This document shows, one piece after another, positions 627 through 50,497 of a DNA stretch of 64,000 nucleotides. Made by a program: the position numbers and the translations under genes. A model generated the notes under the pieces. The model was not told the DNA's origin. It saw nothing but the letters and a program-made list of their open reading frames with translations, and did not search any database. The number at the start of each line of letters is the position of its first letter. Position 1 is the stretch's first letter. Origin of the DNA: an uncultured delta proteobacterium (GTDB lineage: Bacteria > Desulfobacterota > Desulfobacteria > Desulfobacterales > SG8-13); NCBI GenBank assembly GCA_963779885.1, contig CAWAAN010000024.1, forward strand, positions 11,776-75,775, read 5' to 3'.

Positions 627-1460
627 GTGAAAAATATTACCGATACCGTCAAGGCCACTTACGGCACGGGCCGCCTGGCCGAGCGGCTGCTCGAAAGCCT
701 GCGTGCGGCCGGCTATGACCTCGACCGGCTGACCCCCGCCGACCTGATGACCTTCGATGAACTGCATGTCATGGGCCGCCAGGCCACCGTGGCCCTCGGG
801 CGCCTGGCCGGACTCACCGCCGACATGCGCGTTCTGGACATCGGCTGCGGCCTGGGCGGATCGGCTCGCACCCTGGCCACTGAATTCGGCTGCCATGTGA
901 CCGGCGTCGATCTGTCGGAAGAGTTCGTCGACGCGGCGCGCGTTTTGAGCGAACGGGTGGGGTTGGCGGAAAAGGTCGCCTTCCGGCACGGCGACGCCTT
1001 GCACCTACCGTTCGATCACAACCGGTTCGATGCGGCTTTCATGATCCATGTCAACATGAACATCGCCGACAAAAACCGCCTGTTCGCGGAGGCCGCCCGC
1101 GTTTTAAAAGATGGCGCAAAACTGGTGTTGTGGGAAATCTGCCGTATCGAAGGGTCCGATGTGACCTATCCGATGCCCTGGGCCAGGGAGGCGTCTTTCA
1201 GCTTCCTGGTCGGCCTGCCAGACATGACCGCCCTGATTGAAAAGGCCGGTTTCGATAGGGTTCACATCGAAGATGCCACGGCCGAGGCCGCTGATTGGGT
1301 GCGCGCCCGCCTGGAGCCGCCAAAGAAAAATCGGCCCCGGTTGCCGCGCCCGGACCTCGATCTGGTGCTGGATGATTTCCGCTCGAAACGTGCCAATCTT
1401 TCAAAAAACCTGCTGCAAGGCGCCATCGCCGTGCTGCGTGCCCTCGCCGTCAAGGGGTAG
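627..1460 (+). CDS. class I SAM-dependent methyltransferase
   Basis: 277 aa with the motif I sequence VLDIGCGLGGSARTLA. Acidic residue after beta-2 (GVDLSEE) and motif-IV-like FDAAFMIHV. Confidence 0.8.
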   Translation: MKNITDTVKATYGTGRLAERLLESLRAAGYDLDRLTPADLMTFDELHVMGRQATVALGRLAGLTADMRVLDIGCGLGGSARTLATEFGCHVTGVDLSEEFVDAARVLSERVGLAEKVAFRHGDALHLPFDHNRFDAAFMIHVNMNIADKNRLFAEAARVLKDGAKLVLWEICRIEGSDVTYPMPWAREASFSFLVGLPDMTALIEKAGFDRVHIEDATAEAADWVRARLEPPKKNRPRLPRPDLDLVLDDFRSKRANLSKNLLQGAIAVLRALAVKG

Positions 1461-1507: not shown

Positions 1508-1956
1508 CTCAATTCATTGGTATTCATGATATCTCGTTCACGAGCACAGGCACGAGTACGTTCACGTGCACGGAAAAGAGGCGACTTCGTTAGGCTGAAA
1601 CACAATGGGCCATATTTGCACTCTCCAAAAAGCGATATCTTCTTTGTTAACCGTGAACGTGAACGTGAACGTACTCGTGAACGAAAAATTAAATGACCAA
1701 GGTCTACGAAATCCACTTGACTGTATTCAATGGAATTCATAAACACCTGTGTCGAAGTACCTCTGTACCCTTTAGTAATGGTCTAAAGAACTTCGTTCAC
1801 GAGCACGTGCACGTGTACGTTTACGTGCACAAAAAAGAGACGACTCCTTTGTTACCGTGAACGTGCTCGTGAACGTGAACGTACTCGTGAACGAAAATTA
1901 AATGACCGAGGTTTCCGAAAGCCACACGTCTGCATTCATTGGGATTCATTTAACTC
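1508..1956 (+). repeat. two tandem copies of a ~245-nt composite element (linker plus long hairpin with 6-nt-phased CGT/ACG arms)
   Basis: Arm arrays lie at 1535-1573, 1651-1683, 1794-1830 and 1855-1893, for example CGTGAA CGTGAA CGTGAA CGTACT CGTGAA. A conserved loop spans 1574-1650. The conserved linker AAATTAAATGACC...ATTCAnTGGnATTCAT is repeated at 1684-1764 and 1894-1956. It is homologous, as reverse complement, to 15925-16400. Confidence 0.85.
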
Positions 1957-2271
1957 AGTGCCGAAAGCACGCTCGATTTCGTTTTCCATCGCCAGCGCGT
2001 ACCAGCGGGTGGCCGCGGGGAAACGGCGCAGCTGCAGGCAGGCCAAAAACGCCAGGCGGGCCGCGGCGGGAGAATTTTTCAGGTGCCAGGATATCTCGGC
2101 TTTCTGCAACGCGCGGTGGCCGTCTTGTTGTTTCAGGTCCTGCGTGGCGTTCCTCAGGGCCAGGTCCGCGCTCCGGCGGATGTGAAACAGCGCGGTCAGA
2201 TCGGCGCCGCAGCGGTTGCAGTGCGTTTCCGCGGCATTGACCCGGTTGCAGGCCGGACAGGTAATTTCCAC
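1936..2271 (-). CDS. small zinc-ribbon protein (CPAC...CNRC), last gene of the Hsp70 operon
   Basis: GTG start at 2271 lies 10 nt downstream of GGAGG. The N-terminus reads M-EITCPACNRVNAAETHCNRCGADL. The longer listed ORF (to 2490) overlaps the Hsp70 gene out of frame. Confidence 0.55.
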   Translation of the reverse strand: MEITCPACNRVNAAETHCNRCGADLTALFHIRRSADLALRNATQDLKQQDGHRALQKAEISWHLKNSPAAARLAFLACLQLRRFPAATRWYALAMENEIERAFGTELNESQ

Positions 2272-14005: not shown

Positions 14006-14263
14006 TTACGGCCGCTTGCCCTTTAAAACAAGCCGCTTGATCCCGGCGCTGATCCAGCGCGCCGGCACCGCGCTCAGCGCGTAGCCGATGGTGGCCAGCA
14101 TCAGATAGATCATGGCCTTGCCCGGCAGCCCCATGCCGGAAGAAACGAGGCGGGGCGCCAGCCCCCCGGCGGCCGCGATGCCGATCAGGAGGCGCCAGGT
14201 ATCGGGCCAGAAGATAAGATAGAAAAAGACGTAGCCGGCTGTCAGGGGTCGTTTTTTGGGCAC
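14006..14263 (-). CDS. small membrane protein, unknown function
   Basis: 85 aa with two or three hydrophobic segments. No family was recognised. Confidence 0.5.
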   Translation of the reverse strand: MPKKRPLTAGYVFFYLIFWPDTWRLLIGIAAAGGLAPRLVSSGMGLPGKAMIYLMLATIGYALSAVPARWISAGIKRLVLKGKRP

Positions 14264-14439: not shown

Positions 14440-14640
14440 TCCCATCATATGGCCGATTTCCCGGCACTATATTCTTTTCCCTTCCCGTGAACGTGAACGT
14501 GCTCGTGCTCGTGAACGATTATTTAAAACGAAAATTTTTTATTAGCGGAATAGTCTTGAAGATGTACCATTACAGCCTGATGAGATTAAAGAATAAATCT
14601 TTCGTTCACGTTCACGAGTACGTGCACGTTTACGGGTACG
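14440..14640. repeat. degenerate or partial copy of the hexamer-phased composite element
   Basis: Arrays CCGTGAACGTGAACGTGCTCGTGCTCGTGAACG (14476-14508) and CGTTCACGTTCACGAGTACGTGCACGTTTACGGGTACG (14602-14640). The lead-in TTTTCCCTTC resembles the loop end of the 16xxx copies. Confidence 0.7.
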
Positions 14641-14652
14641 ATGTTTAACTGA

Positions 14653-15921
14653 CTACCAGCGGCTGGAGGAGGCCGGTTTCATGGATGAGGAGAGGAAAGG
14701 CGGGGAGGTTTCCAGGGGCTGCGACCATTCGGCGGGAAAGCGCCCATAAAAGCTGCCGTTGAGCTGGGTGTGTCGAATCAGGTGGGACCTGAATTTTCCG
14801 AACAGGGTTTTATCGGGGGCTTTGCGAAAGCGCCAGAACTCGTCCAGGGTCATGCCGCGGCAGGTCAGGCCATCGATGTCATACACGGCGCGTCCGAGAG
14901 TGATGGTCGGCGTTTCGTGAAACAGGGAAGAGATGCCGACCGTGCTGTTGATCGTCACGGTGCCCAGGGCATTTTTCAGGCAGGTGGGCAGGTGGGTGTC
15001 ATGGACCACACCGACTCTGCCAGCGATACCCAGCCGCTTCGACCTTCTGCGAATCAGCCGGGTGTAGTTCTTGATGCCCCGGTCGGCCGGGTGATGTTTA
15101 ATAAGCAGAAACGTTTCTGCGGGTGCATGCCACGCAAAGGAGGAAAGAACCTCATCGATGAAGGCTTCGATGGAAATAAAGTCCGAGTGCCGGCTGACCT
15201 GAAAGTCGTTGTGAGTTTGGAGCGGGACGAAGTAGTATTTTTTCCGCCAGCCGGCGGTCACCATGGCAGTGACCTTGCTCTCGGATACTTTGCACCACAG
15301 TTTCCGGCACCCGTTGCGAATGCCGTAAAAGGCCTGCTTGAAACACCCCTTTTCGCGATGGTGCCGGTAGTATGGATAGCGGAAGCGCAGCAGGCCCATG
15401 ACCACGTAGTAGGCAACGGCCTGGAACGCAGCCTTGCAGTGGTTGTAATTGGCCGCCAAAATAGTGGGCGAACCCTGGCCTTCCGCCGGTAGACGCTCGT
15501 AAAAAAACCTTTCGCGCGGCAGTTCGCTGAAGTCATTGACGCCGTTTTTTTCAAGGGAAATATGATCCGGCCGGATGTAGCCCTCCTCGAAAACCAAACA
15601 CTCGATCCCTGCGGCGCGGGCCTGCTCGAGCGCAATTCTGTGATACAGCCGGCAGTCGCCGAACAAAAAGATGCGGTCGATCTGATAATCGATCAACACC
15701 TGGCGAAAGAACGAGGCCCAGTCCGCGGTAGACCCCCGGTAGGCGATGGTGTTGTCCGGGTGGGCAAAAAATTGATCCCCGGCATTCAGGCAGATCCGGT
15801 AAGTTTTTGCCCCCTGGGCGCGAAAGAAAGTATCCAGTTTCTTGAAGAAGCTGCCGAGCGGCCCTTGCAGGAGCAAAATGTTCTGCCCCTGTATGCGTCC
15901 GATAATTTTTTTCATCACCAC
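14653..15921 (-). CDS. kpsS: capsule polysaccharide export protein KpsS (beta-Kdo transferase family)
   Basis: 422 aa. Family-typical N-terminal LLLQGPLGSFF and FLLIKHHP motifs. It is adjacent to kpsC. The start may be the ATG at 15915. Confidence 0.85.
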   Translation of the reverse strand: MVMKKIIGRIQGQNILLLQGPLGSFFKKLDTFFRAQGAKTYRICLNAGDQFFAHPDNTIAYRGSTADWASFFRQVLIDYQIDRIFLFGDCRLYHRIALEQARAAGIECLVFEEGYIRPDHISLEKNGVNDFSELPRERFFYERLPAEGQGSPTILAANYNHCKAAFQAVAYYVVMGLLRFRYPYYRHHREKGCFKQAFYGIRNGCRKLWCKVSESKVTAMVTAGWRKKYYFVPLQTHNDFQVSRHSDFISIEAFIDEVLSSFAWHAPAETFLLIKHHPADRGIKNYTRLIRRRSKRLGIAGRVGVVHDTHLPTCLKNALGTVTINSTVGISSLFHETPTITLGRAVYDIDGLTCRGMTLDEFWRFRKAPDKTLFGKFRSHLIRHTQLNGSFYGRFPAEWSQPLETSPPFLSSSMKPASSSRW

Positions 15922-15924
15922 AAC

Positions 15925-16400
15925 TGTTCAGCTTTTTATGAATCCCATTGAAATACCATCAAGTGGGTTTCGTAAACTTTAATGATTAAAAATTTCGTGC
16001 ACGGGTACGTTCACGAGCACGAGTACGGTTAAAAAAAGCAATCATCGCTTTATTGGAGAGTTCAAGTATGGTGCCGTTTAATTCAGCCTCACGGTGTCTC
16101 CCCTTTCCCGTGCATGCGAACGTACTCGTGCACGTGCTCGTGATCGAGGTTTCTTTAGAGGTATTTCGACACAGGTTTTTATGAATTCCATCCAATACAA
16201 TCGTGTTGGCTTCGTACACCTCGGTGATTTATTTTTCGTTCACGTGTACGTTCACGTTCACGAGCACGATCACGGTTAACAAAGAAGTCATCGCTTTTGT
16301 GTAGAGCGCAAATTATGGTCCACTGTAATTCAGCCTCGCGACCTCTCCCCTTTCCCGTGCTCGTGAACGTACTCGTGCACGTGCTCGTGACTGAAGTTTC
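15925..16400 (-). repeat. two tandem copies of the composite hexamer-phased element, inverted relative to 1508-1956
   Basis: Arrays at 15995-16028, 16108-16143, 16237-16275 and 16355-16390. Loops at 16029-16107 and 16276-16354 match the reverse complement of 1574-1650. Linkers at 15930-15994 and 16144-16236 match the reverse complement of 1684-1764. Confidence 0.85.
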
Positions 16401-16409
16401 TTCTGGGGT

Positions 16410-18473
16410 TTAAGCCAGCCCTCTCAAAAAGCCGGTCAGTTTGAGGCCCCAGCGCAGCGCCTTCGTCCCGGAGCGCTGCCGGCGGCCGGTTTGCGCGTGG
16501 CTGAGGTGCTCCAGGGCCGATTCCACGCTGACGAGGTGGCCGCGGCGCCAGTCGATGTAGCGGGGGTAGAGAATCAGCGCCGCGGCCACCAGTTCGTCGA
16601 GCGCCAGTTGGCGGCCGCGGCGGGCGAGGTGGTGCCGGTCTCGGGTCAGGCCCCAGCCGGCGTAAAACGGCAGGCCGTAGGTGGCGACCTTCTTATGGTG
16701 CAGCAGGGCTTCGAATCCCGCCAGGCTCGTCAGGGTGTGGACTTCTTCCATGCCCGCCAGGCAGATGGGCATCCCGCGGCCGCCCACGGTCAGGTTGCAG
16801 AACCGGCCGGCCTCTTCGGGCGCAACCGCGCCCCGGCGGTTGCCGGCCAGGACATCGGGGTGCGGCTTGTAGACGATGAAGGCCTCGGGGTTCTGCCGCC
16901 GGACTTCGGCCAGCAGCCCCAGGTTGGTGCGGATGTCGACACCACCCAAACGCACCGACGCATCGTCCTCGACCTGCCCGGGAACAAGAATCGTTTTTTG
17001 CCCCGGCGCGGCCGCCAGGCAAAGCGGTGCATCGTCGCCGACATTGTACTTGCTCAACCGGTTGCGCACGATGAGGCGGCGCAGACCCCGTGCGCGCCGG
17101 CACAGGTCTTCGGTAAAATTTGTCTCGCGCAGCAGAGTTTCCAGGTCGCTGGGCCGTGTGGGGTCGAAGTAAATCCCCTGCGTGTCGACCACCAGCGACA
17201 CGGGCCGCACGATGTCTGAGCCCAGGCCGACCGACCGCAGAAAACCGTCCTCCACATGGTGGACCGGCAGGCCGTGCCGGCGCGCTTTTTCTTCGATCGG
17301 CGCCGAACCGCCCGCCCCCCAGACCAGCACCTTGTCGGCCGCCGCCAGGCTTTGCGGCCGGTCGGAGAAAATCACCCGGTTGCCCGGCGCGTGCAGGGCG
17401 CGCCGGATGTAGGGCCGCTTCCACCAGTGAAACCCCGTGCAGACCAGCCGGCCCGCGTCCATGCGGTGAGCGGCGCACTGCCGGGCGAGATGCTCGATGA
17501 CCACCTCGATCGACCCCGGCCTGCCGGTGGTCGGATCGATATAGCGCGAATAGAGGATATAAGCCGCGGCGAATACTTCCGCCAGCGTCCGGGAGCGCGT
17601 GCGGCGCGGGCAGGTTTGCCGGTCACGGGTCAGTCCCCAGCCCGCGTAAAAAGGCAGGCCGAAGCACTCGACCGGCTTGTTCAGCAAAAGCGCCTCGAAG
17701 CCCATCTGGCTGGTGACGACGTAAACGCGGTCGGCTTTCTCGATAACCGAAAGCGGATTGAGGTCTTCTTCGAGCAGGTGGATCCGGGACCCGCCATGCG
17801 ACCGGGCCGACAAATAGCCCTTCTTTTTACCGGCCACCACTTCGGGATGACGCTTTATGACAATGTCGGCCTGCGGATTTTCCTTGAGAGCCGCAGCCAG
17901 CATACCCTCGAAGGTCTCCGCACCGGCCATGCCGCCGGAGACCGAGCTGTCACCGCAAGTCTGGTCGACCACCAGCACCTTCTGCCGGCGGTGACCGGGC
18001 AATGGGCCTTGAAGCAGGGGAGCGTGATTGTATTTGGAAAGCTTCCCGGCGACGATCCGCCGCAGGGCGCGTTGGGCGCGATCGATGAGGGCCGGCGTCT
18101 CCCACCCGGTGCCCTGCAGCAGGTTCTCCAGCCGTGAGGGCGTCGCCGCGTCGTAGTATATGCCCACGTCATCCACGACCACCGACAGGGGCGGGTCGCC
18201 CCCGGCGCCCGGTAAAACCGATCGGAGAAACCCGTCCTCGAGGCTTATATAGGGCAAGCCCTTTTGGTGGGCCAGCCTCCGCGCCGGCGCAGCCGTCCGC
18301 TTGCGCCCCCAACCGATCACGGCATCGAATCTCCCGCCTCTCAGCCGCCCGTACCGTGCCACCTTCTCACATTCGGGCAGAAAGGCCGCCAGGTGCGGAA
18401 TTCGCAAAATGCCACGGGATAGCGTGACGGCAAGGTTGAAAGTGGGCAGCGCAAAGCTCATCAAAGCAGCCAT
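16410..18473 (-). CDS. kpsC: capsule polysaccharide export protein KpsC (tandem beta-Kdo transferase domains)
   Basis: 687 aa. Internal duplication: two ...EDGFLRSV... and ...PFYAGWGLTRDR... segments, as in KpsC/LpsZ. Confidence 0.85.
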   Translation of the reverse strand: MAALMSFALPTFNLAVTLSRGILRIPHLAAFLPECEKVARYGRLRGGRFDAVIGWGRKRTAAPARRLAHQKGLPYISLEDGFLRSVLPGAGGDPPLSVVVDDVGIYYDAATPSRLENLLQGTGWETPALIDRAQRALRRIVAGKLSKYNHAPLLQGPLPGHRRQKVLVVDQTCGDSSVSGGMAGAETFEGMLAAALKENPQADIVIKRHPEVVAGKKKGYLSARSHGGSRIHLLEEDLNPLSVIEKADRVYVVTSQMGFEALLLNKPVECFGLPFYAGWGLTRDRQTCPRRTRSRTLAEVFAAAYILYSRYIDPTTGRPGSIEVVIEHLARQCAAHRMDAGRLVCTGFHWWKRPYIRRALHAPGNRVIFSDRPQSLAAADKVLVWGAGGSAPIEEKARRHGLPVHHVEDGFLRSVGLGSDIVRPVSLVVDTQGIYFDPTRPSDLETLLRETNFTEDLCRRARGLRRLIVRNRLSKYNVGDDAPLCLAAAPGQKTILVPGQVEDDASVRLGGVDIRTNLGLLAEVRRQNPEAFIVYKPHPDVLAGNRRGAVAPEEAGRFCNLTVGGRGMPICLAGMEEVHTLTSLAGFEALLHHKKVATYGLPFYAGWGLTRDRHHLARRGRQLALDELVAAALILYPRYIDWRRGHLVSVESALEHLSHAQTGRRQRSGTKALRWGLKLTGFLRGLA

Positions 18474-24311: not shown

Positions 24312-24716
24312 TTAATTGGGTAGGCCGAGAACATGCCGCTGGTGAAAGACGCGGATCAAATCCCGTCTGAACTTCACATTGTCGGCATGTTCGCCCTTCA
24401 AGCTGATGCCGGAATTGAAAACGCGCAGGGACACCTCGCGCGAGAAGATCACCTTGCCCACGATTTCGATCAGGTTATTCTCCACATCGGTGGCCACCAG
24501 GAATATATACTTTGACCCGATGTATTCGCATGTTTCCAACAGGATACCGGTCTGGCTCACATTGATGGCCTTGCCGATCCCCTGGCCGATTTTCGATCCT
24601 TTTTCGTTGACCAGGGCGTAGGTGATCGGATTGTTCGCGGCAACCCGCGGATAGCGTCTGCGCTCCGCATCACTTGTTTCCGGTTCCATGCTCTCGATTG
24701 TCATGCAGACGCTCAT
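24312..24716 (-). CDS. single-domain PilZ protein (c-di-GMP receptor family)
   Basis: RRRYPRV (RxxxR) and NVSQTGILL (D/NxSxxG) motifs. The exact start is uncertain (24716, 24704 or 24689). The longer ORF start at 24902 lies inside an intrinsic terminator. Confidence 0.75.
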   Translation of the reverse strand: MSVCMTIESMEPETSDAERRRYPRVAANNPITYALVNEKGSKIGQGIGKAINVSQTGILLETCEYIGSKYIFLVATDVENNLIEIVGKVIFSREVSLRVFNSGISLKGEHADNVKFRRDLIRVFHQRHVLGLPN

Positions 24717-24912: not shown

Positions 24913-25123
24913 CGGTAACGAACCCCGGCAACCCGGCTGTCTCGATTCGAGACCCGTGGCTTTCCGTCTCCCGATCACTCGGGATTTGGCACTTTCAGTG
25001 GCTGATTTCTTTTATTATTATCGGTAATTATAGCAGAGAGCCGCTCATCCGTCAATTAGGGGGCGTTGAAAAAAATGGTTATCCCGGCGGCGCGGTGACA
25101 CGCCAGAAAGGCGACCCCGATGA

Positions 25124-40728: not shown

Positions 40729-40737
40729 ACCAAACGG

Positions 40738-40803
40738 GTGCAAACCGGCTCAACGGGCTCAACCGGCTCAACGACCAACGGACACAACGGACACAACGGA
40801 GAA
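40738..40803 (+). repeat. 9-nt-periodic tandem array filling the gltB-gltD spacer
   Basis: GGCTCAACG GGCTCAACC GGCTCAACG ACCAACGG ACACAACGG ACACAACGG AGAACAC, followed by the ATG. The gltD ribosome-binding site GGAG is part of the last unit. Confidence 0.7.
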
Positions 40804-40806
40804 CAC

Positions 40807-42270
<1,464 letters not shown>

Positions 42271-42820: not shown

Positions 42821-44134
42821 ATGAGAAAAAAAACGACCCCGGCCAGGGCCGGGAGTGCTTCGCCGTCTGCGGCAAACAGGCCCGTCGACGAACTCGAGCG
42901 GGCCGTCGAGGCCCTTCACGTCAGTGAGGAGAAGTACCGCACGGTCATCGAAAACATCGAAGACGGGTACTACGAAGTCGACTTGTCCGGCAATTTCACT
43001 TTTTTCAACCACGCCATGGCCCGTATCACCGGTTTTGCCAGCAACGAACTGCTGGGGATGAACAACCGGGACATGATGGACAAGTTCAACACCACCCAGG
43101 TGTTTCAGGTTTTCAACCAGGTCTACCAAACCGGTCTGGCCACCAGGGCCTTTGATTGGCAGCTGATCCGCAAGGACGGCTCCCGGCGTGTCCTGGAAGT
43201 GTCGATCAGCTTGAAGAAGTCGATCTCCGGCGAACCGGTCGGTTTCATGGGCATCGCGCGCGATGTCACGCAGCGCAAGTTGATGGAGCAGGCCCTGCGG
43301 GACAGCGAAGAAAAATACCGCATGATCATCGAGAACATCGAAGACGGGTACTATGAAGTCGACTTGTCCGGCAATTTCACTTTTTTCAACGAGGCCCTCG
43401 CCCGCATCACCGGCTACAGACGCACGGAACTGCTGGGCAAGAACAACCGCGCCATCATGGACTCATTCAACGCCAAGCGTGTCATGGCCCTTTTCAGCGG
43501 CGTTTACAACACCGGCCTGGCGACCAAGGCCTTCGATTGGGAACTGATCCGCAAAGACGGCGCCAAGCGCTACGTCGAGGTGTCGGTCTCACTGAAACGC
43601 GATCTGAAGGGTCATCCGGTGGGTTTCATGGGCATCGCACGGGACATCACTGAGCGCCGGGAAACCGAAGAACTGCTGCGCCGCAGCGAAGAGAAATTGC
43701 GCGGCAAGACCCGCAACCTCGAGGAAGTCAACACGGCGCTGACGGTTCTGTTAAAAAAACGCGAGGACGACAAGCGCGACCTCGAGCAGACCGTGCTGAC
43801 CAATCTGAACGACATGGTCAAGCCCTACCTGGAGAGGGTCAAGGCCCGCGCCAGTGACACCCGGCAAAAAAACAACCTGGCGGTCCTGGAAGAAAACCTC
43901 AACGCGATTACCTCGCCCTTTTCCTATCGCCTCTCTTCCCGTTATCTGAACCTGACGTCATCTGAAATCGAAATCGCCAACCTCGTCAAGCAGGGAAAAA
44001 GCACCAAGGACATTGCCGACCTGCTGAGCGTCTCCGGCAAGACGATCGAGGTCCATCGCCTCAACATCCGCAAGAAACTGGGGTTGAGCAATAAAAAGGC
44101 CGGTTTGAGAACCCACCTGATGTCGGTTCGCTGA
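42821..44134 (+). CDS. PAS-PAS-LuxR(GerE) transcriptional regulator
   Basis: Two 127-codon PAS units, a coiled-coil linker and a C-terminal LTSSEIEIANLVKQGKSTKDIADLLSVSGKTIEVHRLNIRKKLG helix-turn-helix. Confidence 0.85.
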   Translation: MRKKTTPARAGSASPSAANRPVDELERAVEALHVSEEKYRTVIENIEDGYYEVDLSGNFTFFNHAMARITGFASNELLGMNNRDMMDKFNTTQVFQVFNQVYQTGLATRAFDWQLIRKDGSRRVLEVSISLKKSISGEPVGFMGIARDVTQRKLMEQALRDSEEKYRMIIENIEDGYYEVDLSGNFTFFNEALARITGYRRTELLGKNNRAIMDSFNAKRVMALFSGVYNTGLATKAFDWELIRKDGAKRYVEVSVSLKRDLKGHPVGFMGIARDITERRETEELLRRSEEKLRGKTRNLEEVNTALTVLLKKREDDKRDLEQTVLTNLNDMVKPYLERVKARASDTRQKNNLAVLEENLNAITSPFSYRLSSRYLNLTSSEIEIANLVKQGKSTKDIADLLSVSGKTIEVHRLNIRKKLGLSNKKAGLRTHLMSVR

Positions 44135-50169: not shown

Positions 50170-50337
50170 GTGAATCAACTCTCCCCGCCCGATGGCGGTT
50201 CTATTGTGGTTTTGTGATCAGGGTAAAATAAACCCGGACGCTATACAAGCATAAAGCGCGGGATAATCGCTCATGATAAGAATCCCCGGCCCCGATTCAA
50301 CCTTGCCGGTAAAAGATCGTCGGTGGTATACTATGAC

Positions 50338-50420
50338 GGTTTGGCCGGTTTTGCCGGTTGAGCCCGTTTAGCCCGTTTGCCGGCTGAGTCCGTTGGGCCG
50401 GTTGAATGGGTAGGTTGGGG
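50338..50420 (-). repeat. 9-nt-periodic tandem array, reverse-complement family of the 40738-40803 array
   Basis: GGTTTGGCC GGTTTTGCC GGTTGAGCC CGTTTAGCC CGTTTGCC GGCTGAGTC CGTTGGGCC GGTTGAATG. GGTTGAGCC is the reverse complement of GGCTCAACC. Confidence 0.7.
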
Positions 50421-50497
50421 TGAGTGTAACGAACCCCAACAAAGATGATGGACCTTCGCCGATGTTGGGTTTCGCTGCCCTCAGCGCAACCTTGTAC
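50410..50497. repeat. inverted pair of TGTTGGGTTTCG...CAACCT-type repeat units
   Basis: GTAGGTTGGGGTGAGTGTAACGAACCCCAACA (50410-50441) and TGTTGGGTTTCGCTGCCCTCAGCGCAACCTTGTAC (50463-50497) are imperfect reverse complements. A shorter related TTGTTGGGTTTCG lies near 44432-44446. Confidence 0.6.

Follow-up and report, generated by a model that had tools for sequence, protein, structure and literature searches.

The 494-nt spacer between the kpsC-like and kpsS-like genes of the analysed window (the whole 64,000-nt stretch of DNA from an uncultured delta proteobacterium) most probably consists, with a probability of about 0.55, of two old tandem copies, by now diverged, of a modular interspersed repeat that is non-coding and specific to its lineage; the effect of this repeat on the mRNA would be generic and not that of a capsule switch. 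The spacer feature is real but ordinary in kind. The repeat family is undescribed and is documented here in uncultured soil and sediment Desulfobacterales; its build is unusual in that hexamer arrays form the hairpin stems and that arrays, loops, tails and a second hairpin module recombine as modules. What novelty remains lies in these stems, in their modular partners and in analogous hairpins on unrelated contigs. For annotation it follows that the kpsC-kpsS spacer should not be taken as a capsule-specific regulator or a cassette site.

Spacer and flanking genes

According to the gene calls of the source contig, a 408-kb piece of an uncultured Desulfobacterales-type MAG (ENA ERZ25039549, contig_68625), the kpsC-kpsS gap is the sole sizeable non-coding break within kpsF...kpsS, as the earlier note had it. 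Both flanking genes lie on the minus strand, again as described there, and Pfam assigned both the KpsC-like (16410-18473) and the KpsS-like (14653-15921) reading frame to Capsule_synth. That note had given the gap as 488 nt of non-coding repeat; the repeat does occupy it entirely, and the length has to be corrected. In a sequence comparison the KpsS homologues begin MKKIIGRI, which moves the true start of kpsS to the ATG at 15915 and gives a gap of 494 nt. The hairpins reported earlier were recovered as strong folds in both spacer units (Table 1), and for the gap in its entirety the folding energy is -165.5 kcal/mol (z = -6.9). A sigma-70-like promoter was looked for in the spacer and an intrinsic terminator-like site on both strands of 15916-16409; neither was found, which makes co-transcription of kpsC, the repeat units and kpsS plausible.

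Two further features of the cluster were recorded. A c-di-GMP-I-GGC riboswitch aptamer at 24923-24999 on the minus strand (63 bits, exceeding the Rfam gathering score) lies upstream of a 130-aa ORF (24312-24704, minus strand) that is followed on the same strand by the kpsF-...-kpsS cluster; given this position, the capsule export operon may be under c-di-GMP control. An 85-aa predicted two-helix membrane protein (14006-14263, minus strand), for which no Pfam family was found, is conserved after kpsS and locus 2 in the window and in the relatives L249 and L251, and its gene may be the last of the kps operon.

Layout and anatomy of the repeat units

Alignment and profile search resolved the gap into two tandem units of about 240 nt, L3a and L3b, both in minus-strand orientation. 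Their mutual identity is 79%; as reverse complements they match unit L1a at locus 1 with 81-84% identity, and the inverted-repeat pairs I1-I8 connect 1528-1966 with 15952-16398. This bears out the proposal that the gap consists of two tandem units which are reverse-complement homologues of 1508-1956 (profile E down to 4e-82; 79-84% identity). A third, truncated copy, which the earlier list did not contain, forms locus 2 and is made up of a 3'-arm-type array, a spacer of about 85 nt and a 5'-arm-type array. Locus 1 is situated between a methyltransferase gene (627-1460, plus strand) and a convergent ORF (1936-2271, minus strand).

Table 1. Capsule genes, repeat loci, units and arms in the window
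Feature	Position	Strand	Description
kpsC-like gene	16410..18473	-	687 aa; upstream flank of spacer; Pfam PF05159, two stretches
kpsS-like gene	14653..15915	-	420 aa from ATG at 15915; downstream flank of spacer; Pfam Capsule_synth
Unit L3a	16157..16409	-	promoter-proximal in spacer; profile E = 1e-77; hairpin -64 kcal/mol, z = -5.2
L3a 5' arm	16355..16395	-	(NNNACG)n hexamer array, TTCAGTCACGAGCACGTGCACGAGTACGTTCACGAGCACGG
L3a 3' arm	16236..16275	-	(CGTNNN)n hexamer array, CCGTGATCGTGCTCGTGAACGTGAACGTACACGTGAACGA
Unit L3b	15922..16156	-	promoter-distal; profile E = 4e-82; hairpin -65 kcal/mol, z = -6.7
L3b 5' arm	16108..16148	-	hexamer array
L3b 3' arm	15995..16028	-	hexamer array
Locus 2	14473..14645	-	truncated third copy; directly after kpsS stop (14653), before 85-aa ORF 14006-14263(-)
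Locus 1	1508..1956	+	tail fragment, full unit L1a and short-form unit L1b
Unit L1a	1508-1745	+	arms 1533-1573 and 1650-1685
Unit L1b	1770-1956	+	arms 1791-1831 and 1854-1895; most of loop deleted

The hexamer-array pattern has 33 matches in the window against 0.02 expected by chance. No further copy was found in about 10.6 kb of contig past both ends of the window, and the three loci thus form a cluster within 16 kb. Locus 1 is opposite in orientation to loci 2 and 3 within these 16 kb, which rules out a replication-polar motif.

A unit of about 240-245 nt comprises a leader, two inverted hexamer arms around a loop, and a tail; in L3a the order on the minus strand is leader, 5' arm, loop, 3' arm, tail, and in L3b the tail extends to the kpsS start codon. 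The leader is short and A-rich (AAAGAAAC), with the conserved form CC.TTAGYAATGG.CTAAAGAAAC. The 5' arm consists of 5-7 hexamers of the type (NNNACG)n, the 3' arm is the inverted array (CGTGAA/CGTGCT/CGTACT/CGTGCA)n with the hexamer consensus CGT[G/A][A/C][A/T/C], and arm lengths are 32-42 nt. The intervening loop of 26-85 nt begins GGGAAAGGGGAGAGG and ends AAAAAGCGATGA... The tail, of about 80 nt, is A/T-rich with the core CGAAA.CCAC.CGATTGTATTCAA.GGGAT. On the co-oriented (sense) strand the 3' arm is followed by an A-run, and on the antisense strand the stem is followed by GTTTCTTT.

The same junction in related genomes

Junctions were retrieved through KpsS homologues and their contigs, and are given here with their KpsS identity relative to the window. 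At 74% (L256) the genes are separated by a plain 64-nt spacer from which the element is absent; at 77-78% (L254, L255) by a 190-nt spacer with a different, AAGG-rich repeat; and at 81% (L003) and 83% (L251-L253) by a spacer with one unit. In L249 and L250 (82%) the spacer holds three arm-and-loop modules with a 118-nt period, a long 3' arm and one tail, and has hybrid 3'/5' arms. The window itself has two full units, and the spacer of a near-identical strain (L259; GCA_049280735.1) is 100% identical to it. The comparison of related junctions that the earlier note had called for thus has a divided outcome, the block being present in the clade of at least 81% KpsS identity and absent from L256, L254 and L255.

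Because the relatives' junctions hold no element, another repeat or 1-3.5 modules, the repeat is dispensable for the operon architecture, and the same range among close relatives speaks against an element required for kps expression. No gene cassette was found at the junction among the seven relatives. The element therefore entered the kpsC-kpsS junction in the ancestor of the clade of at least 81% KpsS identity, and duplication, deletion and recombination between hexamer arrays have reshaped it since. Recombination between arrays is indicated by the hybrid arms and by the deletions at microhomologies that were seen among the copies. The other loci were also followed. The locus 1 ortholog in L005 (MFD01721.bin.3.168) consists of about five units of the short form, where the window has two units; L249 and L251 carry an ortholog of locus 2, whereas L003 does not; and all three window loci are retained at orthologous positions in the genome of L005/L249, whose KpsS is 82% identical. 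One and the same operon junction comes in natural variants with 0, 1, 2 and 3.5 modules, a series that could serve to measure the effects of such repeats on a polycistronic mRNA.

The contig of the near-identical strain L259 stops inside locus 1 (at 15700-15913 of L259), where it carries a single hybrid unit with the L1b tail and 3' arm on the L1a loop. This is either an assembly collapse at the repeat or a true copy-number difference between near-identical strains, and the termination of the contig within the locus illustrates how such repeats disrupt short-read assemblies. In the kpsC-kpsS spacers of L254 (5597-5788) and L255 (3731-3920) an insert of about 130 nt stands instead of the hexamer element; it carries 6-8 AAGG(A)/GAGGA motifs at 8-9-nt spacing (GGTTCAAGG GGTCGAGGA TCCAAGGA GTCAAG...) and is reminiscent of multi-site CsrA/RsmA-binding RNAs.

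Distribution of the family and gene neighbourhoods

An exact pattern with 26 specified bases, taken from the 3' arm, was scanned against representative genomes of 185,579 species and matched only three MAGs, all related to the source: 'uncultured delta proteobacterium MFD01721.bin.3.168', with five contigs, and two 'Desulfobacterales bacterium' MAGs. Altogether the hexamer-repeat family occupies at least nine independent loci across four or more genomes. Plasmid and phage collections held no similarity to it, by which a plasmid or phage origin was ruled out, and a literature search for the hexamer strings returned primers only.

In two MAGs the repeat adjoins genes unrelated to capsule, namely PilY1-like, GAPDH/response-regulator, aldehyde dehydrogenase, aminotransferase/glyoxalase and isochorismatase genes. 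Copies beside such unrelated genes identify it as a generic interspersed repeat, and the idea of a capsule-specific control element fails on the same ground. At the roughly five informative co-directional loci (kpsC>kpsS, kpsS>orf85, L006, L007 and L008) the element is always in sense orientation; the other loci are convergent junctions, and none of the about nine independent loci lies between divergent genes. With so few loci, the one-sided p for orientation is about 0.03-0.08. Selection against terminator-like copies within transcription units would explain such a bias, copies being retained only in the non-terminating sense orientation.

In a second module type (type B; L004, L007, L008) the (CGTGAA)n array occurs singly, with no inverted partner, and is connected to a GGAGGAAGAG...GTCATCATCC linker and a GTTGGGGT...ACCCCAAC hairpin, which suggests that the array itself, rather than the stem, is the persistent building block. 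The GTTGGGGTGAGTGTAACGAACCCCAAC hairpin that stands beside a nonamer array in the window accompanies the lone (CGTGAA)n arrays of L004, L007 and L008, and several repeat modules therefore recombine in these genomes.

A generic (CGTRNN)5 scan of metagenome and viral collections was too loose, and among the matches listed most were unrelated repeats. Inverted hexamer-array hairpins were observed on unrelated metagenomic contigs (L042, 1118-1203; L070, 10629-10740; L076, 2052-2191) and on a viral contig (L188, 4180-4285). Their arrays are (CGTGCC)n, (CGTGGC)n, (ATTACG/AGCACG)n and (CGTACT)n, and they are sited in short intergenic gaps. Hexamer-array hairpin stems may recur in unrelated bacteria and phages.

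Tests of coding, RNA structure and selection

A reverse-strand ORF (MNSI...(X-His)n) that starts with ATG is intact in two of the four window units. Over 12 or more copies the reading frame varies among all three possibilities or is broken, and 5 of 12 tails lack the ATG, by which a His-rich or Arg-rich reverse-strand peptide was ruled out. Independent sRNA genes were rejected for the lack of a sigma-70-like promoter or intrinsic terminator in any unit. Rfam gave no match at gathering score, with weak miRNA-precursor (long hairpin) noise alone at E <= 10, which discards a known RNA family.

Arms pair equally well with their cognate and with foreign partners (mean residual 0.09 kcal/mol; permutation p = 0.53), a sense-strand G·U bias in the hairpins was not found, sense and antisense strands fold equally well, and the tail has no conserved structure (consensus -0.28 kcal/mol, 0 compensatory pairs). 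On these results a selected RNA hairpin was rejected, and the suggestion of a conserved structured RNA, lacking also an Rfam match, is not upheld. The pairing potential exists because the arms share the hexamer consensus; it does not derive from arm-arm coevolution.

Orthologous units are 81-85% identical over aligned columns, and the 4-fold sites of the adjacent kpsS are 72-76% identical. Element identity (0.81-0.85) is thus slightly above that of 4-fold sites (0.72-0.76), which is not decisive for purifying selection, and constraint on the element sequence would be at most weak. The persistence of loci 1-3 across genomes about 25% divergent at 4-fold sites hints at some constraint beyond that of a passive repeat. 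The paralogous copies share 76-85% identity, which means that no transposition has taken place recently.

Comparison with known repeat systems

The closest described kind of element, by analogy and with no sequence homology, is the paired tandem-repeat sites of Geobacter metallireducens. Its Gmet_I classes 1-3 were described as multicopy intergenic 'global regulator binding sites'. Each is a pair of arrays, on opposite strands and at a variable distance, with 3-5 tandem repeats of 7-9 nt per array; one site lies between proB and proA, and the authors proposed that the sites bind IHF/HU (Aklujkar et al. 2009, PMC2700814). Like these sites, the hexamer repeat is multicopy, intergenic in a Desulfobacterota-type genome, lineage-specific and sometimes inside an operon, and its arrays are paired on opposite strands, with 5-7 hexamers per arm and 26-85-nt spacing. 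Unlike them, it is built of the hexamers CGTGAA/CGTGCT/CGTACT in place of the 7-9-nt units GTTGCTYN, TCTCCGTS[Y] and MTYCTGA, none of the Gmet_I consensus sequences being found in it, and it has a conserved loop, an 80-nt tail and tandemly amplified whole units.

With the REP/BIME elements of enterobacteria and the BOX elements of Streptococcus pneumoniae the repeat shares an extragenic location at 3' ends or between co-transcribed genes, a palindromic, hairpin-forming, mosaic or modular and clustered make-up, and copy and module numbers that differ between strains. REPs, however, are GC-rich palindromes of about 35 nt whose conserved head RAYT transposases recognise, and BIMEs are REPs in alternating orientation; the units here are of about 245 nt, have hexamer-array arms and long loops, and stand in direct tandem. 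A short palindrome (~20-40 nt) with a conserved head in alternating orientation was not found in the hexamer repeat.

The MITEs Chunjie (Geobacter uraniireducens) and Correia (Neisseria) resemble the repeat in being 150-250 bp long and non-coding, with inverted repeats and size variants, and in lying in intergenic DNA or within operons without breaking them; the hexamer repeat is also of lower G+C than its host. In contrast to these MITEs, its inverted arms are internal, with the leader and the tail of about 80 nt outside them, and terminal inverted repeats are lacking. In about 75 kb of the contig no parent IS or autonomous relative with the same ends was found, and the hexamer arrays there are confined to the three loci, none of them flanking a gene. 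The 64-nt empty junction of L256 and the filled ones have no common spacer sequence, so that no target-site duplication can be read from them, and single-unit loci were seen without flanking direct repeats. A MITE was rejected on account of the internal arms and the absence of near-identical recent copies at 76-85% identity; defined termini were not found either. The G+C-rich stem with a U-tract on the transcribed strand that marks an intrinsic terminator or attenuator was not found, nor was the covariance-model match or covariation of a structured cis-regulatory RNA. The spacer repeat is an interspersed intergenic repeat that belongs to none of the named families compared.

Proposed role and alternative explanations

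Under the preferred reading, the family is scattered through the intergenic DNA of a narrow clade of uncultured Desulfobacterales, its copy number and module make-up shifting via recombination or slippage between hexamer arrays, and would persist only downstream of genes and in the orientation that leaves no U-tract after the hairpin. The kpsC-kpsS transcript would carry it passively as two imperfect stem-loops of about 35-40 bp. Co-transcribed REP sequences affect mal operon mRNA, and REP copies can stabilise upstream mRNA. Transcripts of co-transcribed Correia elements are cleaved by RNase III (PMC10969869). Cleavage by RNase III and/or a block to 3'-exonucleases, generic for REP- and Correia-type repeats, would be the most likely consequence of the hairpins here. 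The kpsC and kpsS halves of the message would then decay separately and kpsS would need independent translation, so that the stability and translation of the two genes would be uncoupled, by a repeat that is dispensable for operon architecture and no capsule-specific switch. Of the roles suggested earlier, an effect on mRNA processing or stability is the most economical functional consequence.

A different role, to which we give a minor share of the probability, would be at the level of DNA, the hexamer arrays serving as recognition arrays for an oligomerising nucleic-acid-binding protein in chromosome structuring or global regulation, and the hairpin potential being a by-product of paired sites on opposite strands. 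Putative binders would be IHF/HU or gyrase, as at E. coli BIMEs, or a protein that wraps short-repeat arrays, as Fur does on hexamers or as the omega/ParR-type RHH proteins do. That the hexamer consensus and periodicity are conserved and arm-arm complementarity is not, that folding has no strand asymmetry, and that arrays exist as convergent pairs, as the truncated form of locus 2 and as lone arrays in type-B modules, all argue for such sites, as do the further short-period (nonamer) arrays in intergenic regions of the window and the IHF/HU or global-regulator reading of the closest described elements, the G. metallireducens paired arrays (PMC2700814). That reading, however, is the proposal of its authors only; sites in DNA should ignore the orientation of transcription, whereas the elements appear orientation-biased and avoid divergent (promoter) regions; and with a 6-bp period, neighbouring sites do not share a face of the helix. 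The repeat could also, though this is again unlikely, be a neutral relic: selfish DNA in decay, or a decaying product of recombination, that leaves kps expression measurably unchanged and is kept since its deletion brings no advantage. Paralogs of only 76-85% identity with no recent copies, orthologs diverging at about the 4-fold-site rate, frequent indels, loop deletions and variable module numbers, relatives that retain the same operon around a 64-nt spacer, and the lack of covariation in arms or tail are consistent with decay. Against it, bacteria quickly lose useless DNA, yet the three window loci are kept orthologously in the L005/L249 genome, and two stems of about 40 bp, with about -65 kcal/mol apiece, would hardly go unnoticed by RNases and ribosomes when in an mRNA.

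The earlier note had suggested a function in the capsule operon itself, either as an attenuator that sets the KpsS:KpsC ratio or as a recombination scar or landing pad that replaces the serotype-specific region 2. The element does occupy the only non-coding break of the kps cluster, and a repeat is retained at the junction in four related lineages, but we consider this very improbable. The family is not specific to capsule genes, and attenuation does not agree with a sense stem that lacks a following U-tract and a gap that lacks a terminator-like site. Region 1 (kpsFEDUCS) of E. coli group 2 loci has kpsC and kpsS next to each other, so that no serotype cassette is expected between them; the analogy with region 2 is therefore not supported, and the landing pad is disfavoured by seven relatives without cassette genes at the junction, one of which has the plain 64-nt spacer. 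Least credible of all, and close to dismissal, is that each unit is an independent gene, for an sRNA with its own promoter or for a His-/Arg-rich reverse-strand peptide such as MNSIQYNRVGFVHLGDLFFVHVYVHVHEHDHG at 16181-16279 on the plus strand. Tandem arrays of sRNA genes are known in other bacteria, and half of the four window units do have an ATG-initiated reverse-strand ORF running into a hexamer-encoded (X-His)n stretch; the inconsistent or interrupted frames, the tails without ATG, the missing promoters, terminators and Rfam matches and the lack of conserved structure outside the arms stand against it.

We raise one further and rather doubtful idea, that the paired and single CGT-NNN arrays are a platform for a putative oligomeric protein that would either read RNA, like TRAP/HutP, or wrap DNA, like Fur/omega/ParR. 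TRAP and HutP read RNA triplets at a fixed spacing. If such a platform existed, the hexamer arrays, the nonamer arrays and the GTTGGGG hairpins would together form a lineage-specific post-transcriptional or chromosome-structuring network that happens to take in the capsule export operon.

Other repeats in the window

Repeats of other kinds were noted in the window. A nonamer array of the CAACSGNNN type with about 5-6 copies lies at 50337-50440, adjoining a GTTGGGGTGAGTGTAACGAACCCCAAC hairpin at 50414-50440, and another nonamer array, at 40733-40800, closely precedes a start codon near 40808. In a coding region at 42935-43638, a tandem duplication of 381 nt (1.8 copies, 76% matches) probably represents duplicated PAS-like sensor domains.
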